Assembly: GCA_964387425.1 (NCBI GenBank)
Contig: CAYLXP010000099.1
Coordinates: forward strand, 1-20,997
Source: an uncultured Victivallales bacterium
GTDB taxonomy: Bacteria; Verrucomicrobiota; Kiritimatiellia; UBA8416
Direction of reading: 5' to 3'
Length of the DNA stretch: 20,997 nt
Positions 2,567 through 19,392 of this stretch are shown one piece after another. The position numbers and the translations under genes were made by a program. Numbering within the stretch: position 1 is the first letter of the stretch; each line of letters starts with the position of its first letter. The notes under the pieces were generated by a model. It ran no database searches and was not told the origin of the DNA. It saw only the letters and a program-made list of their open reading frames with translations.

Positions 2567-4282
2567 TTGGATCTTGAACGACTGCGCCACAGTACGGCGC
2601 ATGTGATGGCCGCCGCCATCTGCCGACTCTATGATGACGTTCTGTTGGACATCGGGCCGGCGACGGATAGCGGTTTCTACTACGACGTAGACCTCCCGAA
2701 GCGCATTGCTCCCGAAGACTTTGCCGATATCGAGGCCGAGATGGCCAAGATCGTGGCGGAGAAATCCCCCTTCGAACGGGTCGAAGTGTCGCGTGAAGAA
2801 GCGGTCAAGATGCTGACTGAACTGGGGCAGACCTTCAAGCTCGAGCGGCTCCACGACATCCCCGAGGGGGAGGCGATCACCTTCTATCGTTGTGGCGACT
2901 TCATCGACCTTTGCCGCGGTCCGCACGTGGACAACACTGGCGACATCCGGGGTTTCAAGCTTACCTCCGTGGCCGGTTCTTACTTCCACGGCAAAGAGAC
3001 GAACCCGATGCTGCAGCGTATCTATGGCATCGCGGCCCAGTCTCCCAAGCAGATCAAGGTGCAGCTGAAGCAGCTTGAAGAGGCAAAGAAGCGCGATCAC
3101 CGCAAGATCGGCAAGGAGCTGGACCTGTTCAGTATCCAGGAAGACGTTGGCCCGGGGTTGGTGCATTGGCATCCACGGGGGGCACGGATTCGCTCCATCA
3201 TCGAGGATTTCTGGAAGCGCGAGCATTTCCGGGCCGGCTACGAGCTGCTCTACTCGCCGCACATCGGCCGGGCCGAGCTCTGGCAGACATCCGGGCACAT
3301 CGACTTCTATAAGGAGAATATGTACTCGCCGATGGATGTGGACGATCACGACTACTTCGTGAAGCCGATGAACTGCCCATTCCATATCCAGGTCTATAAG
3401 AGCCAGAAACGCTCCTATCGCGATCTCCCGCTGCGTTGGGCCGAGCTGGGTACCGTCTACCGCTATGAGAAGAGCGGCGTGCTGCACGGGCTGCTGCGCG
3501 TGCGCGGCTTCACACAGGACGATGCCCATATCTTCTGCACGCCGGAGAAGATCCAGGAAGAGGTCAAGACCACGGTCACCTTTGCGCTGAATATGCTCAA
3601 GGCCTTCGGCTTTGAAGACATCAGCGCCTATCTCTCGACGCGTCCGGAGAAGGCCGTTGGCGAGCAGACCCGCTGGGAACAGGCAACCGCTTCACTGAAG
3701 CGCGCGCTGGAAGCCGAATCGATCGACTACGAGGTCGATGTCGGTGGCGGCGCCTTCTACGGTCCAAAGATTGACCTCAAGATCAAGGATGCCATCGGCC
3801 GTGAGTGGCAGATGGGGACAATCCAGTTTGATTTCAACCTTCCGGAACGCTTTGATATGAAATACACCGGTGAGGATGGCAAGGATCACCGGCCCTACAT
3901 GGTGCACCGCGCACTGCTCGGCAGTATCGAGCGGTTCTTCGGCGTGCTGGTGGAGCACTACGGCGGTAAGTTCCCGCTGTGGCTGGCCCCGGAGCAGGTC
4001 AAGGTCCTTCCCATTACCGACGATCAGCTTGAATACGCCGACCAGGTTGCCGAAACCTTGCGCGCCGCCGACTTCCGCGTGGCCGTTGACCGGCGTTCCG
4101 AGCGAATTGGTGCGAAGATTCGGGTGGCCCGCAACGAGCGTGTGCCGTACATGATTATCCTGGGCGGAAACGAACAGGAGAGCCAGACCGTGGCCCTTCG
4201 CGGGCGGGATGGCGAGCAAGAAGTGATGTCGCTTGAAACTGCAATGGAGCAGCTGCAGGCAGAGGTAGAAAACCAAGCATAG
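2567..4282 (+). CDS. thrS: threonyl-tRNA synthetase lacking the N-terminal TGS (N1) domain
   Basis: Editing-domain motifs '[12 protein letters not shown]' (HxxxH) and 'DLCRGPHV' (CxxxH) are present. Class II catalytic motifs include '[14 protein letters not shown]', '[17 protein letters not shown]' and '[13 protein letters not shown]', followed by the anticodon-binding C-terminus. TTG start at 2567 has RBS GGGAG at 2553-2557. An in-frame TGA at 2558-2560 rules out a longer N-terminus. Confidence 0.9.
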
Positions 4283-4293
4283 GGAGGTCGACT

Positions 4294-4821
4294 ATTCGTT
4301 CGTTCATCAGAGTCAATCTTAAGATCCGCGTACCCGAGGTCCGCCTGACGGGCCACGATGGCACACAGCTCGGCGTGATGTCGACGCGTGACGCCATGAA
4401 GAAGGCCCACGAGTTGGGCTTGGATCTTGTCGAGATTTCGCCGAACGCCAATCCACCGGTCTGTCGCCTGATGGACTACGGCAAATTCCGGTACGAGCAA
4501 GGCCGCAAGCAGCGTGAACAGCGCAAGCACCAGCACCAGAATGCGGTCAAAGAGATCAAGTTCCGCCCCAACGTGGGTGACCATGACTACGAGACCAAGG
4601 TCAATCACGTCCGGAAGTTCCTTGAAAAGGGCCACAAAGTTAAGATCAGCCTGACCTTCCGCGGGCGCGAAAACGCACATCGCGAGCTCGGTTTCGCGGT
4701 TGTTGAGCGCGTCATCAAGGACTGCGAAGATCTCAGCACCGTGGACATGGCTCCCAAGCGGGTCGGTCGCATGATCGTGGCCATGCTGGGCGTTCGCTCC
4801 GGCAAGGGCTCAAAGAGCTAA
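4294..4821 (+). CDS. infC: translation initiation factor IF-3, probable AUU start
   Basis: The tracked ORF (4375-4821) begins 'MMSTRDAMKKAHELGLDLVEISPNANPPVCRLMDYGKF', which is IF-3. The same frame is open upstream and reads 'IRSFIRVNLKIRVPEVRLTGHDGTQLGV'. That is the conserved IF-3 N-terminus, and it contains no ATG, GTG or TTG. ATT at 4294-4296 lies 6 nt after RBS AGGGAGG (4281-4287), which overlaps the thrS stop. AUU is the known autoregulatory infC start in many bacteria. Confidence 0.8.
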   Translation: MRSFIRVNLKIRVPEVRLTGHDGTQLGVMSTRDAMKKAHELGLDLVEISPNANPPVCRLMDYGKFRYEQGRKQREQRKHQHQNAVKEIKFRPNVGDHDYETKVNHVRKFLEKGHKVKISLTFRGRENAHRELGFAVVERVIKDCEDLSTVDMAPKRVGRMIVAMLGVRSGKGSKS

Positions 4822-5542: not shown

Positions 5543-5572
5543 AAAAAGGCCATCCTAGGATGGCCTTTTTTT
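5543..5572 (+). terminator. intrinsic terminator/attenuator hairpin between rplT and pheS, flanked by an A-run and a T-run so possibly bidirectional
   Basis: An 8-bp GC-rich stem (aggccatc 5547-5554 with gatggcct 5559-5566) has a CTAG loop. A5 lies upstream at 5543-5547 and T7 downstream at 5566-5572. It ends 17 nt before the pheS ATG. Confidence 0.6.
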
Positions 5573-13131: not shown

Positions 13132-13932
13132 ATGAAGGTACTGATGGTGGGAGATTTGGTGGGGTCACCGGGGCGGCAGGTGTTTGCGCAGGTGGTCACC
13201 CGCATGAAGCAGACCAAGGGCGTCGACTTTGTTGTCGTTAACGCCGAGAACTCGGCGGGTGGCAAAGGCGTGACGGGAAAGCTGGCAGAGGAACTGTTTG
13301 CGGCCGGTGCTGATGTTATCACGCTGGGGGATCATGCCTGGAACCAGAAAGAGTTTATTTCCTACATCGACTCCGAGCCTCGCATCTTGCGTCCGGCCAA
13401 CTTTGCGCCTGGTAACCCGGGCCATGGCGCCGTGACCGTCAACACACCGTTTGGTGATGTCACGGTACTCAACTTGGTGGGGCGTGTTTTCATGGGGCCT
13501 TATGACTGCCCGTTTCGCAAAGCTGATGAGCTGCTAAAGGAGCATCCGTCGAGCAAGATCAAGCTGGTCGATATGCATGCCGAAGCAACGTCCGAGAAGA
13601 TTGTGATCGGTCGGTACCTGGATGGGCGCGTCAGTGCTGTTGTGGGAACGCACACGCATGTCCAGACGTCTGACGAGATCGTCCTGCCGGGCGGCACGGC
13701 ATATTTGACAGACCTTGGGATGACGGGGGTGAAGGATTCTGCCATTGGAAGAGAACTGGACTCGGTGGTTTCCATGTTCTTGACAGGGATGCCGTCGAAA
13801 TATCAGCTCGCCAAGGGCGACCCCGTGCTGGAAGGCCTCCTGATCGACGTCGATCCTACGACTGGGCGTGCAAAGAAGGTCAAGCGGTTGCGTGAGAGTA
13901 TGTCGGGTGCTGCGAAGACGGCGTGGCAGTAG
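13132..13932 (+). CDS. ymdB: YmdB-like metallophosphoesterase (TIGR00282 family; 2',3'-cyclic-nucleotide phosphodiesterase)
   Basis: 'MKVLMVGDLVGSPGR...VVNAENSAGGKG...GDHAWNQKE...GTHTHVQTSDE' contains the calcineurin-like metal-binding motifs. Adjacency to rny matches the rny-ymdB pair of Bacillus. ATG 13132 is preferred over the tracked TTG 13120. Confidence 0.8.
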   Translation: MKVLMVGDLVGSPGRQVFAQVVTRMKQTKGVDFVVVNAENSAGGKGVTGKLAEELFAAGADVITLGDHAWNQKEFISYIDSEPRILRPANFAPGNPGHGAVTVNTPFGDVTVLNLVGRVFMGPYDCPFRKADELLKEHPSSKIKLVDMHAEATSEKIVIGRYLDGRVSAVVGTHTHVQTSDEIVLPGGTAYLTDLGMTGVKDSAIGRELDSVVSMFLTGMPSKYQLAKGDPVLEGLLIDVDPTTGRAKKVKRLRESMSGAAKTAWQ

Positions 13933-13988
13933 TCTTCAGTCATTTGCGCCTGCGGCGCGTCATTTGTCATGAGTCACTGGTGGGGACA

Positions 13989-15392
13989 ATGGAGTCGAGA
14001 GGAAAAGCTTCGTTGCAGATGTTGGGGCAGGATCGGACGGCTGATGATCGCCCGAAGGCGCTATCGGTTTCCGAACTGACGCGGATGATCAAGGGCACGC
14101 TGGAAGGACGCTTCGGCAGCGTGCTCGTGGAAGGCGAGCTCTCCAACGTAAGCCAACCCGCATCGGGTCACCTCTACTTCACCATCAAAGATGCGAACGC
14201 CCAGATTAGCGCGGTCATGTTTCGGGGCAACCAGCGGGGGTTGAAATTCCGCCCTCAGGATGGCGTCGTGGTCCGCGCCCGGGGCGAGATTAGCGTCTAC
14301 GAGCGGCGCGGGAACTACCAGATTCTCGTGCGGCGCATGGAGGAGGGCGGCAAGGGCAGTCTGCAGGCGCAGTTCGAGGCCCTGAAGGAGAAGCTCCAGA
14401 AGGAGGGGCTCTTTGCCAAGGAGCGCAAGCGGCCGCTACCGATGCTGCCGCAGCATGTGGGCGTGGTCACCTCCGCGACCGGCGCGGCCATCCGCGACAT
14501 TCTGAATGTGGTTTCACGCCGCTTTCCCAACCTGCACGTCCTGGTGGCACCCGCCAAGGTCCAGGGTGATGGTGCCGCCGAGGAGATTGCGAGTCAGATT
14601 GATCGGCTCAACGAAATCGGTGGCCTGGACGTTCTGATCGTGGGGCGGGGCGGCGGCAGTCTCGAGGATCTCTGGAGTTTCAACGAAGAGGTCGTTGCGC
14701 GGGCCATTGCACGATCTACGATTCCCGTGATCTCGGCCGTGGGGCACGAGGTGGACTTCACGATCAGCGATTTCGTCGCCGACCTGCGGGCACCGACACC
14801 GTCGGCAGCCGCCGAGCTGGTCGTGGGCTGCAAGGAGGCGTTCCAGGATCGCCTTGCCGAGCAGCAGGGACGTCTTGTGCGGGCGCTGCGGGAGAGCGCG
14901 CTTGCCGCCCGGAACCGGTTGCTGCATGCGGCGGGGAGCTACGTGTTCCGCGAGCCGGCCAACGCCGCGGCACGGCACCGTCAGAAACTGGATGCGTGCC
15001 GGATGCGGATTGAGCACAAACTACGCGGTGCGCTGCAGGAGACGCAACAGACGCTGGACCTGATTGAGTCGCGTCTGCAGCAGGAGACACGCACGGCAGT
15101 CCAGGTGAGCCGCCAGACGCTTGAGGATCTCCGGCTGAGAATGGTTCACCGCGCCAAGCTGCGCCACCAGATGGGCGTCCAGGATGTGCGCCGCGTTGCC
15201 ATGCAGCTGCGGGCATTGAACCCGTTGGCTGTACTGCAGCGCGGTTACTCGGTAACGCGGGGCGCCGATGGACGCATCATTGCCAGAGTTGCGGACGTGA
15301 AGCCGGATGAGATCGTGGAGACGCAAGTTGCGGATGGACGCTTTGAGGCCGAAGTGAAGATTGTGAAGAAGGACGAGGGGCGCTCCGGGTAG
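13989..15392 (+). CDS. xseA: exodeoxyribonuclease VII large subunit
   Basis: 'LSVSELTRMIKGTLEGRFGSVLVEGELSNVSQPASGHLYFTIKDANAQISAVMF' is the XseA OB-fold N-terminus. A catalytic region and C-terminal coiled coil follow. The start is uncertain: ATG 13989 or 14019, with GTG 13923 as the tracked maximum. Confidence 0.85.
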   Translation: MESRGKASLQMLGQDRTADDRPKALSVSELTRMIKGTLEGRFGSVLVEGELSNVSQPASGHLYFTIKDANAQISAVMFRGNQRGLKFRPQDGVVVRARGEISVYERRGNYQILVRRMEEGGKGSLQAQFEALKEKLQKEGLFAKERKRPLPMLPQHVGVVTSATGAAIRDILNVVSRRFPNLHVLVAPAKVQGDGAAEEIASQIDRLNEIGGLDVLIVGRGGGSLEDLWSFNEEVVARAIARSTIPVISAVGHEVDFTISDFVADLRAPTPSAAAELVVGCKEAFQDRLAEQQGRLVRALRESALAARNRLLHAAGSYVFREPANAAARHRQKLDACRMRIEHKLRGALQETQQTLDLIESRLQQETRTAVQVSRQTLEDLRLRMVHRAKLRHQMGVQDVRRVAMQLRALNPLAVLQRGYSVTRGADGRIIARVADVKPDEIVETQVADGRFEAEVKIVKKDEGRSG

Positions 15393-15451
15393 GGTTGCTC
15401 TCCTTGACTGGAGTGAGCGGGGACGCTCACTAGGCCTGCGGAGAGCAACCC
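15392..15451 (+). repeat. 60-nt nested perfect hairpin immediately after the xseA stop
   Basis: The outer 12-bp perfect stem pairs 15392-15403 (gggttgctctcc) with 15440-15451 (ggagagcaaccc). The inner 7-8-bp stem pairs 15413-15419 (gtgagcg) with 15424-15430 (cgctcac) around a GGGA loop. No T-run follows. Confidence 0.5.
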
Positions 15452-15515
15452 CACCCTTCGCTGGATGCGTGGGGCCGGGAACAGTGGAATATGATAGAAG
15501 AGAAGGAGTTTCGTA

Positions 15516-15818
15516 ATGGCTGCAAAGAAGACCGATGAGAAGGCGCCGAGTTTTGAGAAATCCATGGATCGCCTTGAGGCGATTGTCTCCGATATGGAAG
15601 GCGGCGAGCTCAGCCTGGACGCGATGATTACGCGTTTCGAAGAGGGACAGTCGCTGATCAAGTTCTGCTCGGGAAAACTGGACGAGGTGGAGCGGAAGAT
15701 CGAGAAACTGCTGACGACCGAGGGCGACATCCAAACGGCGCCATTTGGTGACGACACTGACGACGATGACGACGACGATGAGAACGGCGACGACGAGGAA
15801 GGGAAGTTGCTGTTCTGA
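15516..15818 (+). CDS. xseB: exodeoxyribonuclease VII small subunit with a poly-acidic C-terminal tail
   Basis: 'SFEKSMDRLEAIVSDMEGGELSLDAMITRFEEGQSLIKFCSGKLDEVERKIEKLL' is typical XseB. RBS AAGGAG lies 7 nt before ATG 15516. The C-terminus reads 'DDTDDDDDDDENGDDEEG'. Confidence 0.85.
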   Translation: MAAKKTDEKAPSFEKSMDRLEAIVSDMEGGELSLDAMITRFEEGQSLIKFCSGKLDEVERKIEKLLTTEGDIQTAPFGDDTDDDDDDDENGDDEEGKLLF

Positions 15819-15879
15819 ACGTCGAGCATCCAGCCAACGCCCAAGACGGGCAAGCCTCGAACACTGAGCCTCGAACACC
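15817..15879 (+). repeat. copy A of a dispersed intergenic repeat (roughly 75% identical to the core of copy B at 20858-20920)
   Basis: Copy A reads 'gaacgtcgagcatccagccaacgcccaagacgggcaagcctcgaacactgagcctcgaacacc'. It aligns to 'gaacgtccaacaccgaaccaacgccacaggcgggcaagcattgaacatccaacctcgaacgaa' in copy B. The shared core is 'ccaacgcc..a.g.cgggcaagc.t.gaaca...cctcgaac'. It starts at the xseB stop codon and runs up to the dppD-like start. Confidence 0.45.
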
Positions 15880-15880
15880 T

Positions 15881-16855
15881 GTGTTGTTGGATGTCCAGGG
15901 CCTCTCTGTCGGTTTTCGCAACGGGCCTGACGAGGTGATCGTTGTTCGGGACGTGAGTCTGCGCATTCGCGAGGGCGAGACGGTCGCGCTGGTAGGCGAG
16001 AGCGGTTGTGGCAAGAGTGTCACGGCGCTTTCCCTGGCGCGTTTACTGCCTGAGCCTCCGGCATTTCATCCAGCCGGTGTCATCGTCTTTCGTGGACGCG
16101 AAGTACTGCAGATGTCACGGGCAGAGATGCGAGCGATTCGCGGCGGCCAGATTGCCTACGTGTTCCAGGATCCCGGGACAGCATTGAATCCCGTCTTCAG
16201 GATTGGGTTCCAGCTCCAGGAAGCAATTCGGTCGCATCGGAAAGATGTCGATGCGGACGAGGAGGCGGTTCGCCTGCTCAAGCAGGTCGGGTTGCCCGAT
16301 CCAGGAGCCTGTCTGCGGTCGTATCCGCACGAACTGAGCGGCGGCATGCAACAGCGAGTGGTCATCGCGATGGCATTGGCCTGTCGCCCCAAGCTGCTGG
16401 TGGCCGATGAGCCGACGACGGCGCTGGATGTGACGATCCAGGCGCAGATCCTTGATCTTCTGAAGAGTCTCCAGGAGGAGCTGGGAATGGCCGTGCTGCT
16501 GATTACGCACAATCTTGGCCTGGTTGCGGACGTTGCCCATAGTGTTAACGTGATGTATGCGGGGAGTCTCGTGGAATCGGGACGCGTCGAGGAGGTGCTT
16601 GCCGCTCCAGCCCATCACTATACGAAGGGTCTGCTCGATGCCGTGCCCCGGTTGGCCGCTTCGGAAGGCCGCATGCAGGGAATTGATGGTGCGGTCCCTT
16701 CGCCACGCGAACTGCCGTTGGGCTGCCCGTTTGCCCCGCGCTGCGCCAAGGCCGCGGATGAATGCCGCCGCACGATGCCGAGGACGCGCAGCATCTCTAG
16801 TGGTCGTGGCCATGCCGTACGCTGTCATTTTCCTTTGGGAGTCGCCGTGAATTGA
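15881..16855 (+). CDS. Dpp/Opp-family ABC transporter ATP-binding protein (DppD/OppD-like)
   Basis: Walker A 'GESGCGKSVT', signature 'LSGGMQQRV' and Walker B 'LLVADEPTTALD' are present, with a Cys-rich oligopeptide C-terminal extension ('GCPFAPRCAKAADECRR'). GTG or TTG start at 15881. Confidence 0.85.
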   Translation: MLLDVQGLSVGFRNGPDEVIVVRDVSLRIREGETVALVGESGCGKSVTALSLARLLPEPPAFHPAGVIVFRGREVLQMSRAEMRAIRGGQIAYVFQDPGTALNPVFRIGFQLQEAIRSHRKDVDADEEAVRLLKQVGLPDPGACLRSYPHELSGGMQQRVVIAMALACRPKLLVADEPTTALDVTIQAQILDLLKSLQEELGMAVLLITHNLGLVADVAHSVNVMYAGSLVESGRVEEVLAAPAHHYTKGLLDAVPRLAASEGRMQGIDGAVPSPRELPLGCPFAPRCAKAADECRRTMPRTRSISSGRGHAVRCHFPLGVAVN

Positions 16856-16865
16856 TGATTGAGAG

Positions 16866-16906
16866 CCGCGATGCAATATTGCATCGCGGTGGCCACATGC
16901 TATCAT
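16866..16906 (+). promoter_or_regulatory. perfect 24-bp palindrome overlapping a sigma70-like promoter directly upstream of the DUF433 gene
   Basis: The palindrome CCGCGATGCAAT|ATTGCATCGCGG spans 16866-16889. The promoter is -35 TTGCAT (16879-16884), a 16-nt spacer, then -10 TATCAT (16901-16906). The predicted TSS is at about 16913, 2-3 nt before ATG 16916, so the mRNA is near-leaderless. No SD sequence is visible. Confidence 0.55.
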
Positions 16907-16915
16907 ACGAACACC

Positions 16916-17140
16916 ATGAACGAGTACATAGCAATCGAACCAGGCGTTTGCCATGGGAAGCCTTGCATCAGGGGTACCCGAATACTGGTCAGCGGTATTC
17001 TGAATATGATGGCACACGGTGCCGACATCGGCGAGGTGCTTGACGCCTACCCACAGCTCTCACGTGAAGCCGTGCTTGCAGCACTTGCCTACGCCGAAGC
17101 TCTCGTCGAAGATGAAGAAATCCTGCCGGTTGCGGTCTGA
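16916..17140 (+). CDS. DUF433-family small protein (putative antitoxin or DNA-binding partner)
   Basis: 'MNEYIAIEPGVCHGKPCIRGTRILVSGILNMMAHGADIGEVLDAYPQLSREAVLAALAYAE' matches the DUF433 pattern (I..dP.v..GkP.IrGTRi.V..vl..l..G.s.eeIl..yP.Lt.e.i.aAL.YA). It is about 75 aa. The tracked upstream extension from 16859 runs through the palindrome. Confidence 0.8.
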   Translation: MNEYIAIEPGVCHGKPCIRGTRILVSGILNMMAHGADIGEVLDAYPQLSREAVLAALAYAEALVEDEEILPVAV

Positions 17141-17505
17141 TGCGTTTGCTTCTGGATGAGAACCTGCCCATCATGACGGTCAAGTTTCTTCGCGAGTTGG
17201 GCCACGATGTGGTTGGCGTTCACGATGAAAGTCTCGTTTCCCAGGCGGACGAGTTCATTTTCGCGCACGCGCGACAGTCCGAGCGTGTGCTCGTTACCTA
17301 CAATGCTGACTTCATCGATCTGCGGGCATTGGCAGGAGTCCATCACAGCGGCATCATAAGGCTGCGGATCAGTAACCAGCGGCCCCACTTTGCACATCCG
17401 ATCTTGCGGACAGCTCTTGAGCAACTGCAGGATCGCGATCTTGCGGATACGCTTGTCACCGTGAGTGACCAGCGCATTCGTGTGCGGCACACTTCAGAGC
17501 CCTGA
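17140..17505 (+). CDS. DUF5615-family PIN-like protein (putative toxin partner of the DUF433 gene)
   Basis: 'MRLLLDENLPIMTVKFLRELGHDVVGVHDESLVSQADEFIFAHARQSERVLVTYNADFIDL' is the DUF5615 / Mut7-C-like PIN-fold signature (DENL...GHDV...T.D.DF). The start overlaps the DUF433 stop by 1 nt (TGATG at 17138-17142). Confidence 0.8.
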   Translation: MRLLLDENLPIMTVKFLRELGHDVVGVHDESLVSQADEFIFAHARQSERVLVTYNADFIDLRALAGVHHSGIIRLRISNQRPHFAHPILRTALEQLQDRDLADTLVTVSDQRIRVRHTSEP

Positions 17506-17517
17506 GCCCGTCGTACG

Positions 17518-18510
17518 ATGCAAACGGAAACACATCATCTCCTTCTCGATGTCTGTGACCTCGTGGTCGAGTACCAGGTGGAGGGGAAGCGCGTGCTGCG
17601 GGCGGTTGATGGCGTGAGCTTCTCGGTCGGAAGGAACGAAGTCGTCGGGCTTGTGGGGGAGAGCGGTTGCGGGAAGACGACGACAGGCAATGCCATCGTG
17701 GGGCTGGCGCCCGTGGCTGCGGGGACGATTCAGTTCGACGGCCGGGACATAACGAGTCGCACGGCGGCGGAGAAGCGGCAGCTTTGCTGCGAGGTACAGA
17801 TGGTCTTCCAGGACCCGATGGGTTCGCTCAATCCCCGCCTTCCCGTTGGTGACGCCGTGCTCGAGACGCTTGTTGTCCATCGTGGCCGCCTGGGGTTAGC
17901 CACGCGCGCGGCACAGCGTGCCCGGGTTGAGGAGCTGCTCGACATGGTGGGCCTGGGAGCGGACTTCATCCCGCGCTACCCGCACGAGTTGAGTGGGGGG
18001 CAGCGGCAGCGGGTCGGCATCGCGAGAGCTCTCGCGGTTCAACCGCGTCTGCTGATCGCCGATGAACCGGTCTCCGCCCTGGATGTTTCCGTACAGGTGC
18101 AGATTCTCAACCTGCTCAAGGACCTGAGCGCGGAGCTTTCGTTTGCCTGCCTGTTCGTCGCACACGATCTTGCTGTCGTACGGTACATGTGTGACCGGAC
18201 GCTGGTGATGTACTTTGGGGAGATCGTGGAGGAAGGCCCCACGGAAGCGCTATTCCAACAGCCTTCTCATCCCTACACGCGAGCGTTGCTGTCGGCGGTG
18301 CCCGACGTAGACAAGGGCCTGGCCGCACGGAAGGGCGGGGGAGACCGCATCATTCTCGAGGGTGAAGTTCCGTCGCGACTCGAACCGGTTGAGGGCTGTC
18401 CATTCCACACGCGTTGTCCGCAGGCGGTCGAACGTTGCCGGACGGATAAGCCGGTCGCAACCGATTGTGGTGACGGCCATCTTTCGCGCTGTCATTTTGC
18501 CCACGGATGA
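17518..18510 (+). CDS. Dpp/Opp-family ABC transporter ATP-binding protein (DppF/OppF-like)
   Basis: Walker A 'GESGCGKTTT', signature 'LSGGQRQRV' and Walker B 'LLIADEPVSALD' are present, with the C-terminal 'GCPFHTRCPQAVERCR' extension. It lies 12 nt downstream of the DUF5615 stop. No obvious SD. Confidence 0.85.
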   Translation: MQTETHHLLLDVCDLVVEYQVEGKRVLRAVDGVSFSVGRNEVVGLVGESGCGKTTTGNAIVGLAPVAAGTIQFDGRDITSRTAAEKRQLCCEVQMVFQDPMGSLNPRLPVGDAVLETLVVHRGRLGLATRAAQRARVEELLDMVGLGADFIPRYPHELSGGQRQRVGIARALAVQPRLLIADEPVSALDVSVQVQILNLLKDLSAELSFACLFVAHDLAVVRYMCDRTLVMYFGEIVEEGPTEALFQQPSHPYTRALLSAVPDVDKGLAARKGGGDRIILEGEVPSRLEPVEGCPFHTRCPQAVERCRTDKPVATDCGDGHLSRCHFAHG

Positions 18511-18543
18511 TATACTCACCGCATCTTGAGGAGACGCCAGTTC

Positions 18544-19392
18544 ATGATAAGAGCTTTCCTTTGCACAGCACTGGTCTGCGTTCTGACCGGTTGCGGTCAT
18601 GCTACCCTGGACGGCCGGCTAGGTGCGGGCGTCCGCTATTCATCCTACGGTCCTCCCTCTAATCCCGGCGCTCGATACTGGACCAGGGTGGCTCGCGATA
18701 TGGCGGACACCTTTCCGAAAGCCGTCCCCCAAGTGGTGTGGATCGTGGGTACCCGTGAGGGCACCGGTACCCGCCTTAACTTCCCCGGGCAGAGCGATAG
18801 CCCGCACATTATGTTCTCGGAGGCAGACGCAAACGAAGAGGTGCTGACTCGGTTTGATCGTATGCGGGGGCAGGTTTGGTTGCAGGTGGAACCGGGGCAG
18901 GCTTCGGTAGAGGAGTTGATTGACATTCTGCTCCAGCGCTATGGACATCACCGGTGCGTGATCGGAGTGGGCGTGGATGTTGAGTGGTTTGGTGCCGGCG
19001 ATGATGCGATCGGGACGCCCGTGTCGGACGAGGTGGCCCGGTCCTGGGTCGCGGCTGTTCGCAAGCACGGATCGAACTACTGGCTCTTTCTAAAGCACTG
19101 GCTGACGTCGCACATGCCGCCGACAGAGAGAGACGGCATCATGTTCATTGATGACAGCCAGGACCTCCATTCCCTCAATGCCATGGTGTCTGAGTTCAAG
19201 ATGTGGGGGAAGGCGTTCGAGCCTGCCCCAGTTGGCTTCCAGTATGGGTACGCTTCCGATAGGGAGTGGTGGCAGGTCCTGGACAATCCTCCGGCTGACA
19301 TCGGTGATGCGCTTCTTTTCGAAATCCCGAACACAAAAGGCCTGTACTGGGTGGACTTCACGGTCTTTGAGATTTTCCCGCCAGAAGAATGA
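18544..19392 (+). CDS. lipoprotein of unknown function (283 aa)
   Basis: The signal peptide 'MIRAFLCTALVCVLTGCGHA' carries the lipobox LTG|C. RBS GAGGAGA (18528-18534) lies 9 nt before ATG 18544, 33 nt after the dppF-like stop. The mature part contains 'VGVDVEWFGAG'. A glycoside-hydrolase-like TIM-barrel fold is only a guess. Confidence 0.7.
   Translation: MIRAFLCTALVCVLTGCGHATLDGRLGAGVRYSSYGPPSNPGARYWTRVARDMADTFPKAVPQVVWIVGTREGTGTRLNFPGQSDSPHIMFSEADANEEVLTRFDRMRGQVWLQVEPGQASVEELIDILLQRYGHHRCVIGVGVDVEWFGAGDDAIGTPVSDEVARSWVAAVRKHGSNYWLFLKHWLTSHMPPTERDGIMFIDDSQDLHSLNAMVSEFKMWGKAFEPAPVGFQYGYASDREWWQVLDNPPADIGDALLFEIPNTKGLYWVDFTVFEIFPPEE

Follow-up and report, generated by a model that had tools for sequence, protein, structure and literature searches.

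Pairs of genes in which a COG2442 (DUF433) protein accompanies a PIN-type protein have been predicted as a new class of toxin-antitoxin systems (Makarova et al. 2009, PMC2701414), and the pairing of DUF433 with proteins of the PIN group has also been described by Matelska et al. (2017, PMC5499597). For one such pair, VapBC10 of Synechocystis, co-transcription, toxicity in Escherichia coli, and neutralization via complex formation have been shown (Ning et al. 2013, PMC3834315); its antitoxin binds the promoter, exerts positive autoregulation, and is degraded by ClpXP2 (PMC3834315). A second pair, sll7034/sll7033 of plasmid pSYSA, is in the article by Kopfmann et al. (2016, PMC4963859) among exactly five pSYSA pairs for which an experimental study of 2013 is cited, and, as reported there, the toxins of these five pairs inhibit growth of E. 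coli and the antitoxins attenuate the effect. Pairs of DUF433 and COG4634 genes have further been catalogued on ICEAfe1 and on plasmid pRet42a. Here, we describe a DUF433/DUF5615 gene pair on a contig of an uncultured Victivallales bacterium (CAYLXP010000099.1; the whole stretch of 20,997 nt that was analyzed is referred to as the window), where the pair stands between two ATP-binding cassette (ABC) ATPase genes of the Dpp/Opp type. In our judgment, it is probably a type II toxin-antitoxin operon of the COG2442/COG4634 class, self-contained and gained by horizontal transfer, that was inserted precisely at the stop/start overlap of the ATPase genes in one, probably marine, lineage. A preliminary description of the locus had regarded DUF433-DUF5615 pairs as uncharacterized; this needs correction, given what is reported for sll7034/sll7033 in PMC4963859 and the detail in which the related PIN-COG2442 pair VapBC10 has been characterized (PMC3834315).

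The segment that separates the ATPase genes, named dppD and dppF below, spans 662 bp (16856-17517; all coordinates are positions within the window), in agreement with the module of about 660 bp first described, and contains two small open reading frames (ORFs). A profile hidden Markov model search placed both products in the families that had been proposed for them, far over the Pfam cut-offs. The product of the first ORF, 74 aa from an ATG at 16916, matches PF04255 (DUF433) over profile positions 1 to 56 of 56 with 84.1 bits (cut-off, 23.6), and that of the second matches PF18480 (DUF5615) over positions 1 to 109 of 110 with 87.5 bits (cut-off, 23.8). An in-frame ATG at 16871, within the left arm of a palindrome considered below, accounts for the 89-aa DUF433 product of some gene callers; the alignment of homologues, in which the start MNE[YR]I and the length of 74 aa are kept, favors the shorter protein. 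The DUF433 protein matches PDB entry 2GA1 at an E value of 9e-6, and the fold typical of DUF433, a three-helix bundle or winged helix, binds DNA (PDB 2GA1; PMC2701414). The antitoxin gene precedes the toxin gene, and the two have 1 nt in common (TGATG): the A at 17140 closes the antitoxin stop TGA (17138-17140) and opens the toxin ATG (17140-17142). This arrangement, already recognized in the preliminary description, is kept in homologues: it occurs in six of seven cassettes (the window and five of six homologous cassettes), and the remaining one (L104) has a 1-nt gap instead. By family, gene order, and overlap, the pair is, as far as can be predicted from sequence, a bona fide DUF433/DUF5615 toxin-antitoxin cassette.

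The predicted toxin retains every invariant residue (D6, L17, G21, D23, R114, and R116) and every nearly invariant residue (D37, R49, T53, D57, and F58) of an alignment of 43 homologues. An exhaustive search recovered 2905 cluster representatives of its family, nearly all of them stand-alone proteins of about 120 aa. Two further Pfam profiles matched below threshold (PIN_10, 23.1 bits against a cut-off of 26.2; Mut7-C, 20.1 bits against 23.3), and PF01850, the canonical VapC PIN profile, did not match at an E value of ≤0.01. The AlphaFold2 model of the toxin is of high confidence (predicted local distance difference test score, 94.2; predicted template modeling score, 0.88), and a profile search of the PDB with the toxin was empty. 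The assignment to the PIN group is therefore owed to published profile analyses and not to our fold searches: COG4634 has been placed in the Mut7-C group, a reduced PIN fold that lacks a solved structure (Matelska et al. 2017, PMC5499597), with which the negative structure searches are in accord.

That the cassette was inserted between the ATPase genes had been suggested from the window alone, with comparison of orthologous dppDF loci as the proposed check, and this comparison bears the suggestion out. Using homologues of dppF and of the lipoprotein-like gene downstream, we recovered the locus through protein searches and contig look-ups from five related lineages (L096/L097; L108, GCA_003353835.1; L109 to L111; L112; and a 166-kb Joint Genome Institute [JGI] contig together with L113); a genome scan with dppF itself was swamped by generic Dpp ATPases of many phyla at about 50% identity and did not return the orthologous locus. 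All five lineages keep the order rny-ymdB-xseA-xseB-dppD-dppF with no gene between dppD and dppF, and in all five the dppD stop and the dppF start overlap by 4 nt (ATGA or GTGA). Their DppF proteins are 78 to 85% identical to that of the window. In a gapped DNA alignment with L096, identity of 83% extends up to about 16833-16856 and resumes at about 17518-17542, and the DppF proteins of the window and L108 can be aligned from their N termini (MQTETHH and MSKQSHH, respectively), which marks the dppF start codon at 17518 as ancestral. The GC content of the cassette (0.56, compared with 0.62 and 0.63 in the flanking genes) lies at the 9th percentile of 662-nt windows, which is supportive and not decisive.

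From these alignments, the cassette is an insertion exactly at the 4-nt dppD/dppF stop/start overlap in one lineage, since a deletion in five relatives, each regenerating the exact overlap, would be far less parsimonious. The converse, in which the dppD-dppF operon had the cassette from the outset as a conserved component and the relatives lost it by deletion, is highly improbable in our estimation. It could appeal to a comparison that is one of presence and absence only and is unrooted, and to the closeness of the toxin stop to the dppF start (12 nt), which suits an integrated operon; yet repeated precise deletions would be needed to leave ATGA or GTGA overlaps in five cassette-free lineages, homologous cassettes sit in unrelated contexts, and the cassette is lower in GC than its flanks. 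More than 20 metagenome contigs contain a practically identical copy of the locus, and all of them carry the cassette. Fifteen contigs of the same species are at least 99.9% identical, too alike for any inference on selection or on presence/absence polymorphism. The only variant of the cassette region among these 15 is an A-to-C change at 16897, in the promoter spacer, in one contig.

The closest homologues of the toxin are 58 to 73% identical, and the gene of each follows one for a 74-aa DUF433 protein. Their surroundings differ: one cassette follows two tyrosine recombinase genes (L101), one is flanked by a Ser/Thr kinase/YD-repeat gene and an IF-2B-like gene (L104), one follows exbB-exbD-tonB (L107), and one stands beside PIN_3 and DUF3368 toxin-antitoxin genes (L117). 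The L104 cassette (3775-4366; toxin 58% identical) comes from JGI sample 3300009431, which is also the source of a contig of the window type (L007). Absent from five syntenic relatives and with homologues in unrelated contexts, the cassette is patchy in distribution and mobile, as judged from these comparisons. It does not qualify as an autonomous mobile element (insertion sequence [IS], miniature inverted-repeat transposable element, or integron cassette): no terminal inverted repeats were found around it, there is no recombinase gene in the window, and the only flanking repeat is of chance length. The two copies of this 8-nt direct repeat (CGATGCAA) are at 16869-16876, inside the left palindrome arm, and at 17516-17523, the latter including the dppF start codon; its interpretation as a target-site duplication was rejected, since the 716-bp region contains further repeats of 8 nt and the occurrence of this one is within chance.

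The contexts of the homologues also bear on whether the pair might be an anti-phage abortive-infection system, as the preliminary description had hinted, and not a module of addiction or stress. Defense against phage is known for some type II toxin-antitoxin systems, one homologous cassette has recombinase genes as neighbors and another has further toxin-antitoxin genes around it, and DUF433-PIN_10 pairs have been found in defense islands (PMC5499597). However, none of the known defense-system models of PADLOC matches the DUF433 or the DUF5615 protein, and the genes around the insertion site are housekeeping genes rather than those of a defense island; we regard a role in abortive infection as quite unlikely.

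The cassette appears to bring its own promoter. The TTGCAT-N16-TATCAT promoter proposed in the preliminary description is present, has a TG at 16898-16899 that makes the -10 an extended one (a feature that had been missed), and has a layout that recurs in homologues; it matches the sigma-70 consensus at 8 of 12 positions. The -10 ends 9 nt 5' of the DUF433 ATG, with no Shine-Dalgarno-like sequence between. When the upstream regions of six homologous cassettes were aligned, the same layout (TTGnnn and TAnnnT separated by a 16-nt spacer with TGn at its end, followed by 9 to 10 nt to the ATG) was found in the window, L117, L120/L121, and L107. The layout is partial in L104, where the extended -10 ends 7 nt 5' of the ATG; overall, an extended -10 ends 7 to 10 nt 5' of the ATG in five of six cassettes. 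Among 688 ATGs on both strands of the window, a single one, the DUF433 start, has TGnTAnnnT ending 6 to 11 nt upstream. Because the position of the promoter is conserved across unrelated insertion sites, there is good comparative evidence, short of proof, that the cassette carries its own promoter and that its mRNA starts at, or no more than about 3 nt before, the ATG. The nearly leaderless transcript first proposed from the window alone thus gains comparative support.

Overlapping the -35 is the perfect 24-bp palindrome that had been described (16866-16889), two 12-nt arms without a spacer (CCGCGATGCAAT and ATTGCATCGCGG). Among 200 shuffled versions of the window, a half-length of 12 nt occurred just once, so that the palindrome exceeds the length expected by chance. 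Operators of type II systems usually overlap the -35. That the palindrome is the operator of the DUF433 antitoxin is our best guess from its position, one that we hold at about even strength.

Several points weigh against the reading of the locus as a recently introduced, functional toxin-antitoxin operon. Toxicity, DNA binding, and the transcription start of the window cassette are sequence-based predictions. The direction of the indel was deduced by parsimony and not from a rooted tree, and the 15 same-species contigs include no cassette-free allele. The -35 matches its consensus at only three of six positions, and the consensus promoter scan did not report the TTGCAT/TATCAT site, which was under its threshold. 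A Foldseek comparison of the toxin model with the PDB gave nothing at an E value of ≤0.001 and recovered no PIN domain, and the toxin has N instead of the consensus D at residue 55 (17302-17304), the third position of the motif T-x-[D/N]-x-D-F. Finally, the palindrome is not conserved in the homologous cassettes, which have other, shorter inverted repeats around the -10, and its 20-nt core recurs in three unrelated metagenome contigs, none with a DUF433 or DUF5615 gene. The window has no further half-sites beyond chance. The three contigs were also the only ones found to contain the core, and the palindrome was rejected as a repeated or mobile element in its own right.

On account of residue 55, the module could be seen as a remnant, either decayed or domesticated, whose toxin is catalytically weakened and which is now mainly a promoter and regulatory insert for dppF and the genes downstream. 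The presence of the cassette in all sampled contigs and the lack of a terminator before dppF would fit such a remnant as well. However, N55 is common to most of the closest toxin homologues, which are still paired with intact antitoxins in other contexts (P0123, P0130, and most of the more distant members do not share it); D6, D23, D37, T53, D57, R114, and R116 are all retained, and both ORFs are full length relative to the Pfam profiles. Decay is accordingly improbable in our assessment.

More weight, though still on the unlikely side, can be given to the possibility that the palindrome is not an operator and instead is an RNA hairpin that ends or stabilizes the dppD transcript, or a by-product of the recombination that inserted the cassette. 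In read-through RNA, it would form a hairpin with an 11-bp stem beginning 10 nt after the dppD stop. Other long hairpins of the window resemble terminators, and the absence of conservation, the perfect symmetry without a spacer, and the recurrence of an 8-nt copy of one arm (CGATGCAA) at the dppF start would all suit a hairpin or a scar. Against this, the palindrome is followed by no U-tract, the terminator scan made no call there, and the z-score of the fold is only -1.7; 8-nt repeats are common by chance in the 716-bp region, operators normally differ between toxin-antitoxin homologues, and the overlap with the -35 is where an operator of a type II system is expected.

On the preferred reading, an inserted toxin-antitoxin operon, the locus might work as follows. 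By analogy with VapBC10 and sll7034/sll7033, the 121-aa protein would be a nuclease that arrests growth, and the 74-aa protein would be protease labile and would bind and neutralize it; the antitoxin, alone or with the toxin, would also bind promoter DNA, presumably with the 24-bp palindrome over the -35 as its operator. Transcription from the cassette would start 1 to 3 nt before the ATG and give a leaderless mRNA. The insertion would have broken the ATGA translational coupling of dppD and dppF. With a gap of 12 nt between the toxin stop and dppF and no terminator called in it by the terminator scan, dppF and the genes downstream would be read from both the xseB-dppD transcript and the cassette promoter, and translation of dppF may depend on re-initiation after the toxin ORF.

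Table 1. Features of the cassette and its flanks, with positions within the 20,997-nt window.
Feature	Position	Strand	Remarks
dppD/oppD-like ABC ATPase gene	15881..16855	+	Upstream flank of cassette; ABC_tran and oligo_HPY
24-bp palindrome, CCGCGATGCAATATTGCATCGCGG	16866..16889	.	Candidate operator for DUF433 antitoxin; overlaps -35
Candidate promoter	16879..16906	+	-35 TTGCAT at 16879-16884, 16-nt spacer, extended -10 TGcTATCAT at 16898-16906
Predicted antitoxin gene, 74-aa DUF433 protein (COG2442) with acidic C-terminal tail VEDEEILPVAV	16916..17140	+	PF04255
Predicted toxin gene, 121-aa DUF5615 protein (COG4634, Mut7-C-like PIN group), predicted nuclease	17140..17505	+	PF18480
12-nt spacer, toxin stop to dppF start	17506..17517	+	Without terminator
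dppF/oppF-like ABC ATPase gene	17518..18510	+	Downstream flank; ABC_tran and oligo_HPY
Lipoprotein-like gene, conserved, without Pfam family	18526..19392	+	Probably co-transcribed with genes upstream

Both flanking ATPase genes are intact, and each product has, by Pfam, an ABC_tran domain and the C-terminal oligo_HPY domain of Dpp/Opp-type ATPases (Table 1). Neither reaches an NCBIfam equivalog cut-off, so that a substrate cannot be assigned from NCBIfam; the best match of the DppD-like protein is a dipeptide ABC ATPase model, under its equivalog cut-off. The window contains no permease or binding-protein gene. The Dpp/Opp-type pair lies directly after xseA-xseB in six of six related lineages (window, 13923-18510; L096, L108, L109, L112, and L113), with no permease or substrate-binding gene within 5 to 10 kb in the six, which makes it a conserved "orphan" pair. 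An Rfam scan of 15300-19000 gave no match.

The window lineage and L096/L097 are the only lineages compared in which dppF is followed by the lipoprotein-like gene. Its product has no Pfam or NCBIfam match and 289 homologues at an E value of ≤0.001; the 120 that were listed are 51 to 78% identical. The homologues span Chloroflexi, Acidobacteria, and other phyla and make up a well-conserved unannotated family, and the start codon is uncertain, with gene callers giving 230, 282, or 288 aa. The region 3' of dppF varies among the relatives (L109 to L111, 6728-8194, and L108/L112). One lineage has an IS-type DDE transposase, PSCyt2, PSD1, and DUF1501 genes adjoin the locus in two relatives, and lipid A acyltransferase and acyl carrier protein genes follow dppF in two; this end of the operon resembles a rearrangement hotspot. 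The PSCyt2, PSD1, and DUF1501 genes would by themselves suggest a planctomycete as the host of the locus. Elsewhere in the window, two long, nearly perfect intergenic hairpins lie at 1447-1531 (21-nt arms) and at 15387-15456 (17-nt arms, between xseA and xseB). The longest perfect palindrome of the window, 28 bp (AAAAAGGCCATCCT and AGGATGGCCTTTTT), is found at 5543-5570, just 5' of pheS; bordered by runs of A and T, it resembles a bidirectional intrinsic terminator.

The locus offers a base-resolved example of a cassette that landed in a conserved operon exactly at a 4-nt stop/start overlap, for which the empty sites of five relatives serve as controls, and comparative evidence that one clade of DUF433/DUF5615 cassettes has its own extended -10 promoter and leaderless mRNA. 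It could serve as a test case for selfish modules that perturb or take over host operons and as a source of a tractable toxin of the DUF5615 group, for which we know of no established substrate. A bolder proposal is that the insertion rewired a coupled ATPase pair, placing dppF, the lipoprotein gene, and possibly a Band-7 gene partly under a leaderless, antitoxin-controlled promoter, with dppF translated via re-initiation. If this were true, the stoichiometry of the transporter ATPases would be coupled to the state of the toxin-antitoxin pair, for example, through turnover of the antitoxin under stress, and the selfish module would have become a domesticated regulatory switch; from the arrangement of the locus, we consider this doubtful at best.

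Of the systems with which the cassette can be compared, VapBC10 (ssr2962/slr1767) resembles it in a 74-aa COG2442/DUF433 antitoxin, a 112-aa PIN-type toxin, and an overlapping bicistronic operon, a likeness drawn from the published PIN-COG2442 class. VapBC10 is likewise a strain-specific indel, absent from Synechocystis 6714 (Kopfmann et al. 2016, PMC4963859). It differs in that VapB10 activates rather than represses its promoter and that the toxin abolishes VapB10 binding (PMC3834315), and its leader is 34 to 45 nt long, downstream of a promoter with both a direct and an imperfect inverted repeat.

The pSYSA pair emerged from a tblastn search of plasmids with the window toxin, which matched over toxin residues 2 to 73 with 44% identity. 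In Pfam scoring, the annotated pair reached 68.1 bits with the DUF433 profile and 78.7 bits with that of DUF5615; sll7034/sll7033 thus has the same two families, with the antitoxin gene first and the genes overlapping. In contrast to the window pair, that of Synechocystis sp. PCC 6803 is carried by a plasmid, has an antitoxin of 110 aa that is extended at its N terminus, and is not leaderless, with a 5' untranslated region mapped at 18 nt (PMC4963859); no similar palindrome or extended -10 lies in its upstream region. Given leaders of 18 and of 34 to 45 nt in the Synechocystis systems that were tested, leaderlessness would be limited to the clade of the window cassette.

VapBC45 of Mycobacterium tuberculosis (Rv2018/Rv2019) also combines a DUF433-containing antitoxin with a PIN-like toxin of the Mut7-C group (PMC5499597, PMC2701414). 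Its toxin belongs to the PIN_10 cluster, whereas the window toxin stays under the PIN_10 cut-off, and its antitoxin is fused to an extra winged-helix domain. With canonical VapBC systems (a PF01850 toxin with an AbrB, ribbon-helix-helix, Phd, or MerR antitoxin), the cassette shares an operon logic, in which a small DNA-binding antitoxin is encoded upstream of a small nuclease with an acidic site and an inverted repeat lies close to the promoter; in contrast, its toxin is shorter and lacks a PF01850 match, and the fold of its antitoxin is different. By these sequence features, the toxin is not a canonical VapC, and the pair is of the COG2442/COG4634 class and VapBC-like. Set beside these systems, it is no new kind of system and opens no long-standing question; it belongs to a catalogued and partly tested family, of which it is a tidy but ordinary case of selfish-module movement.

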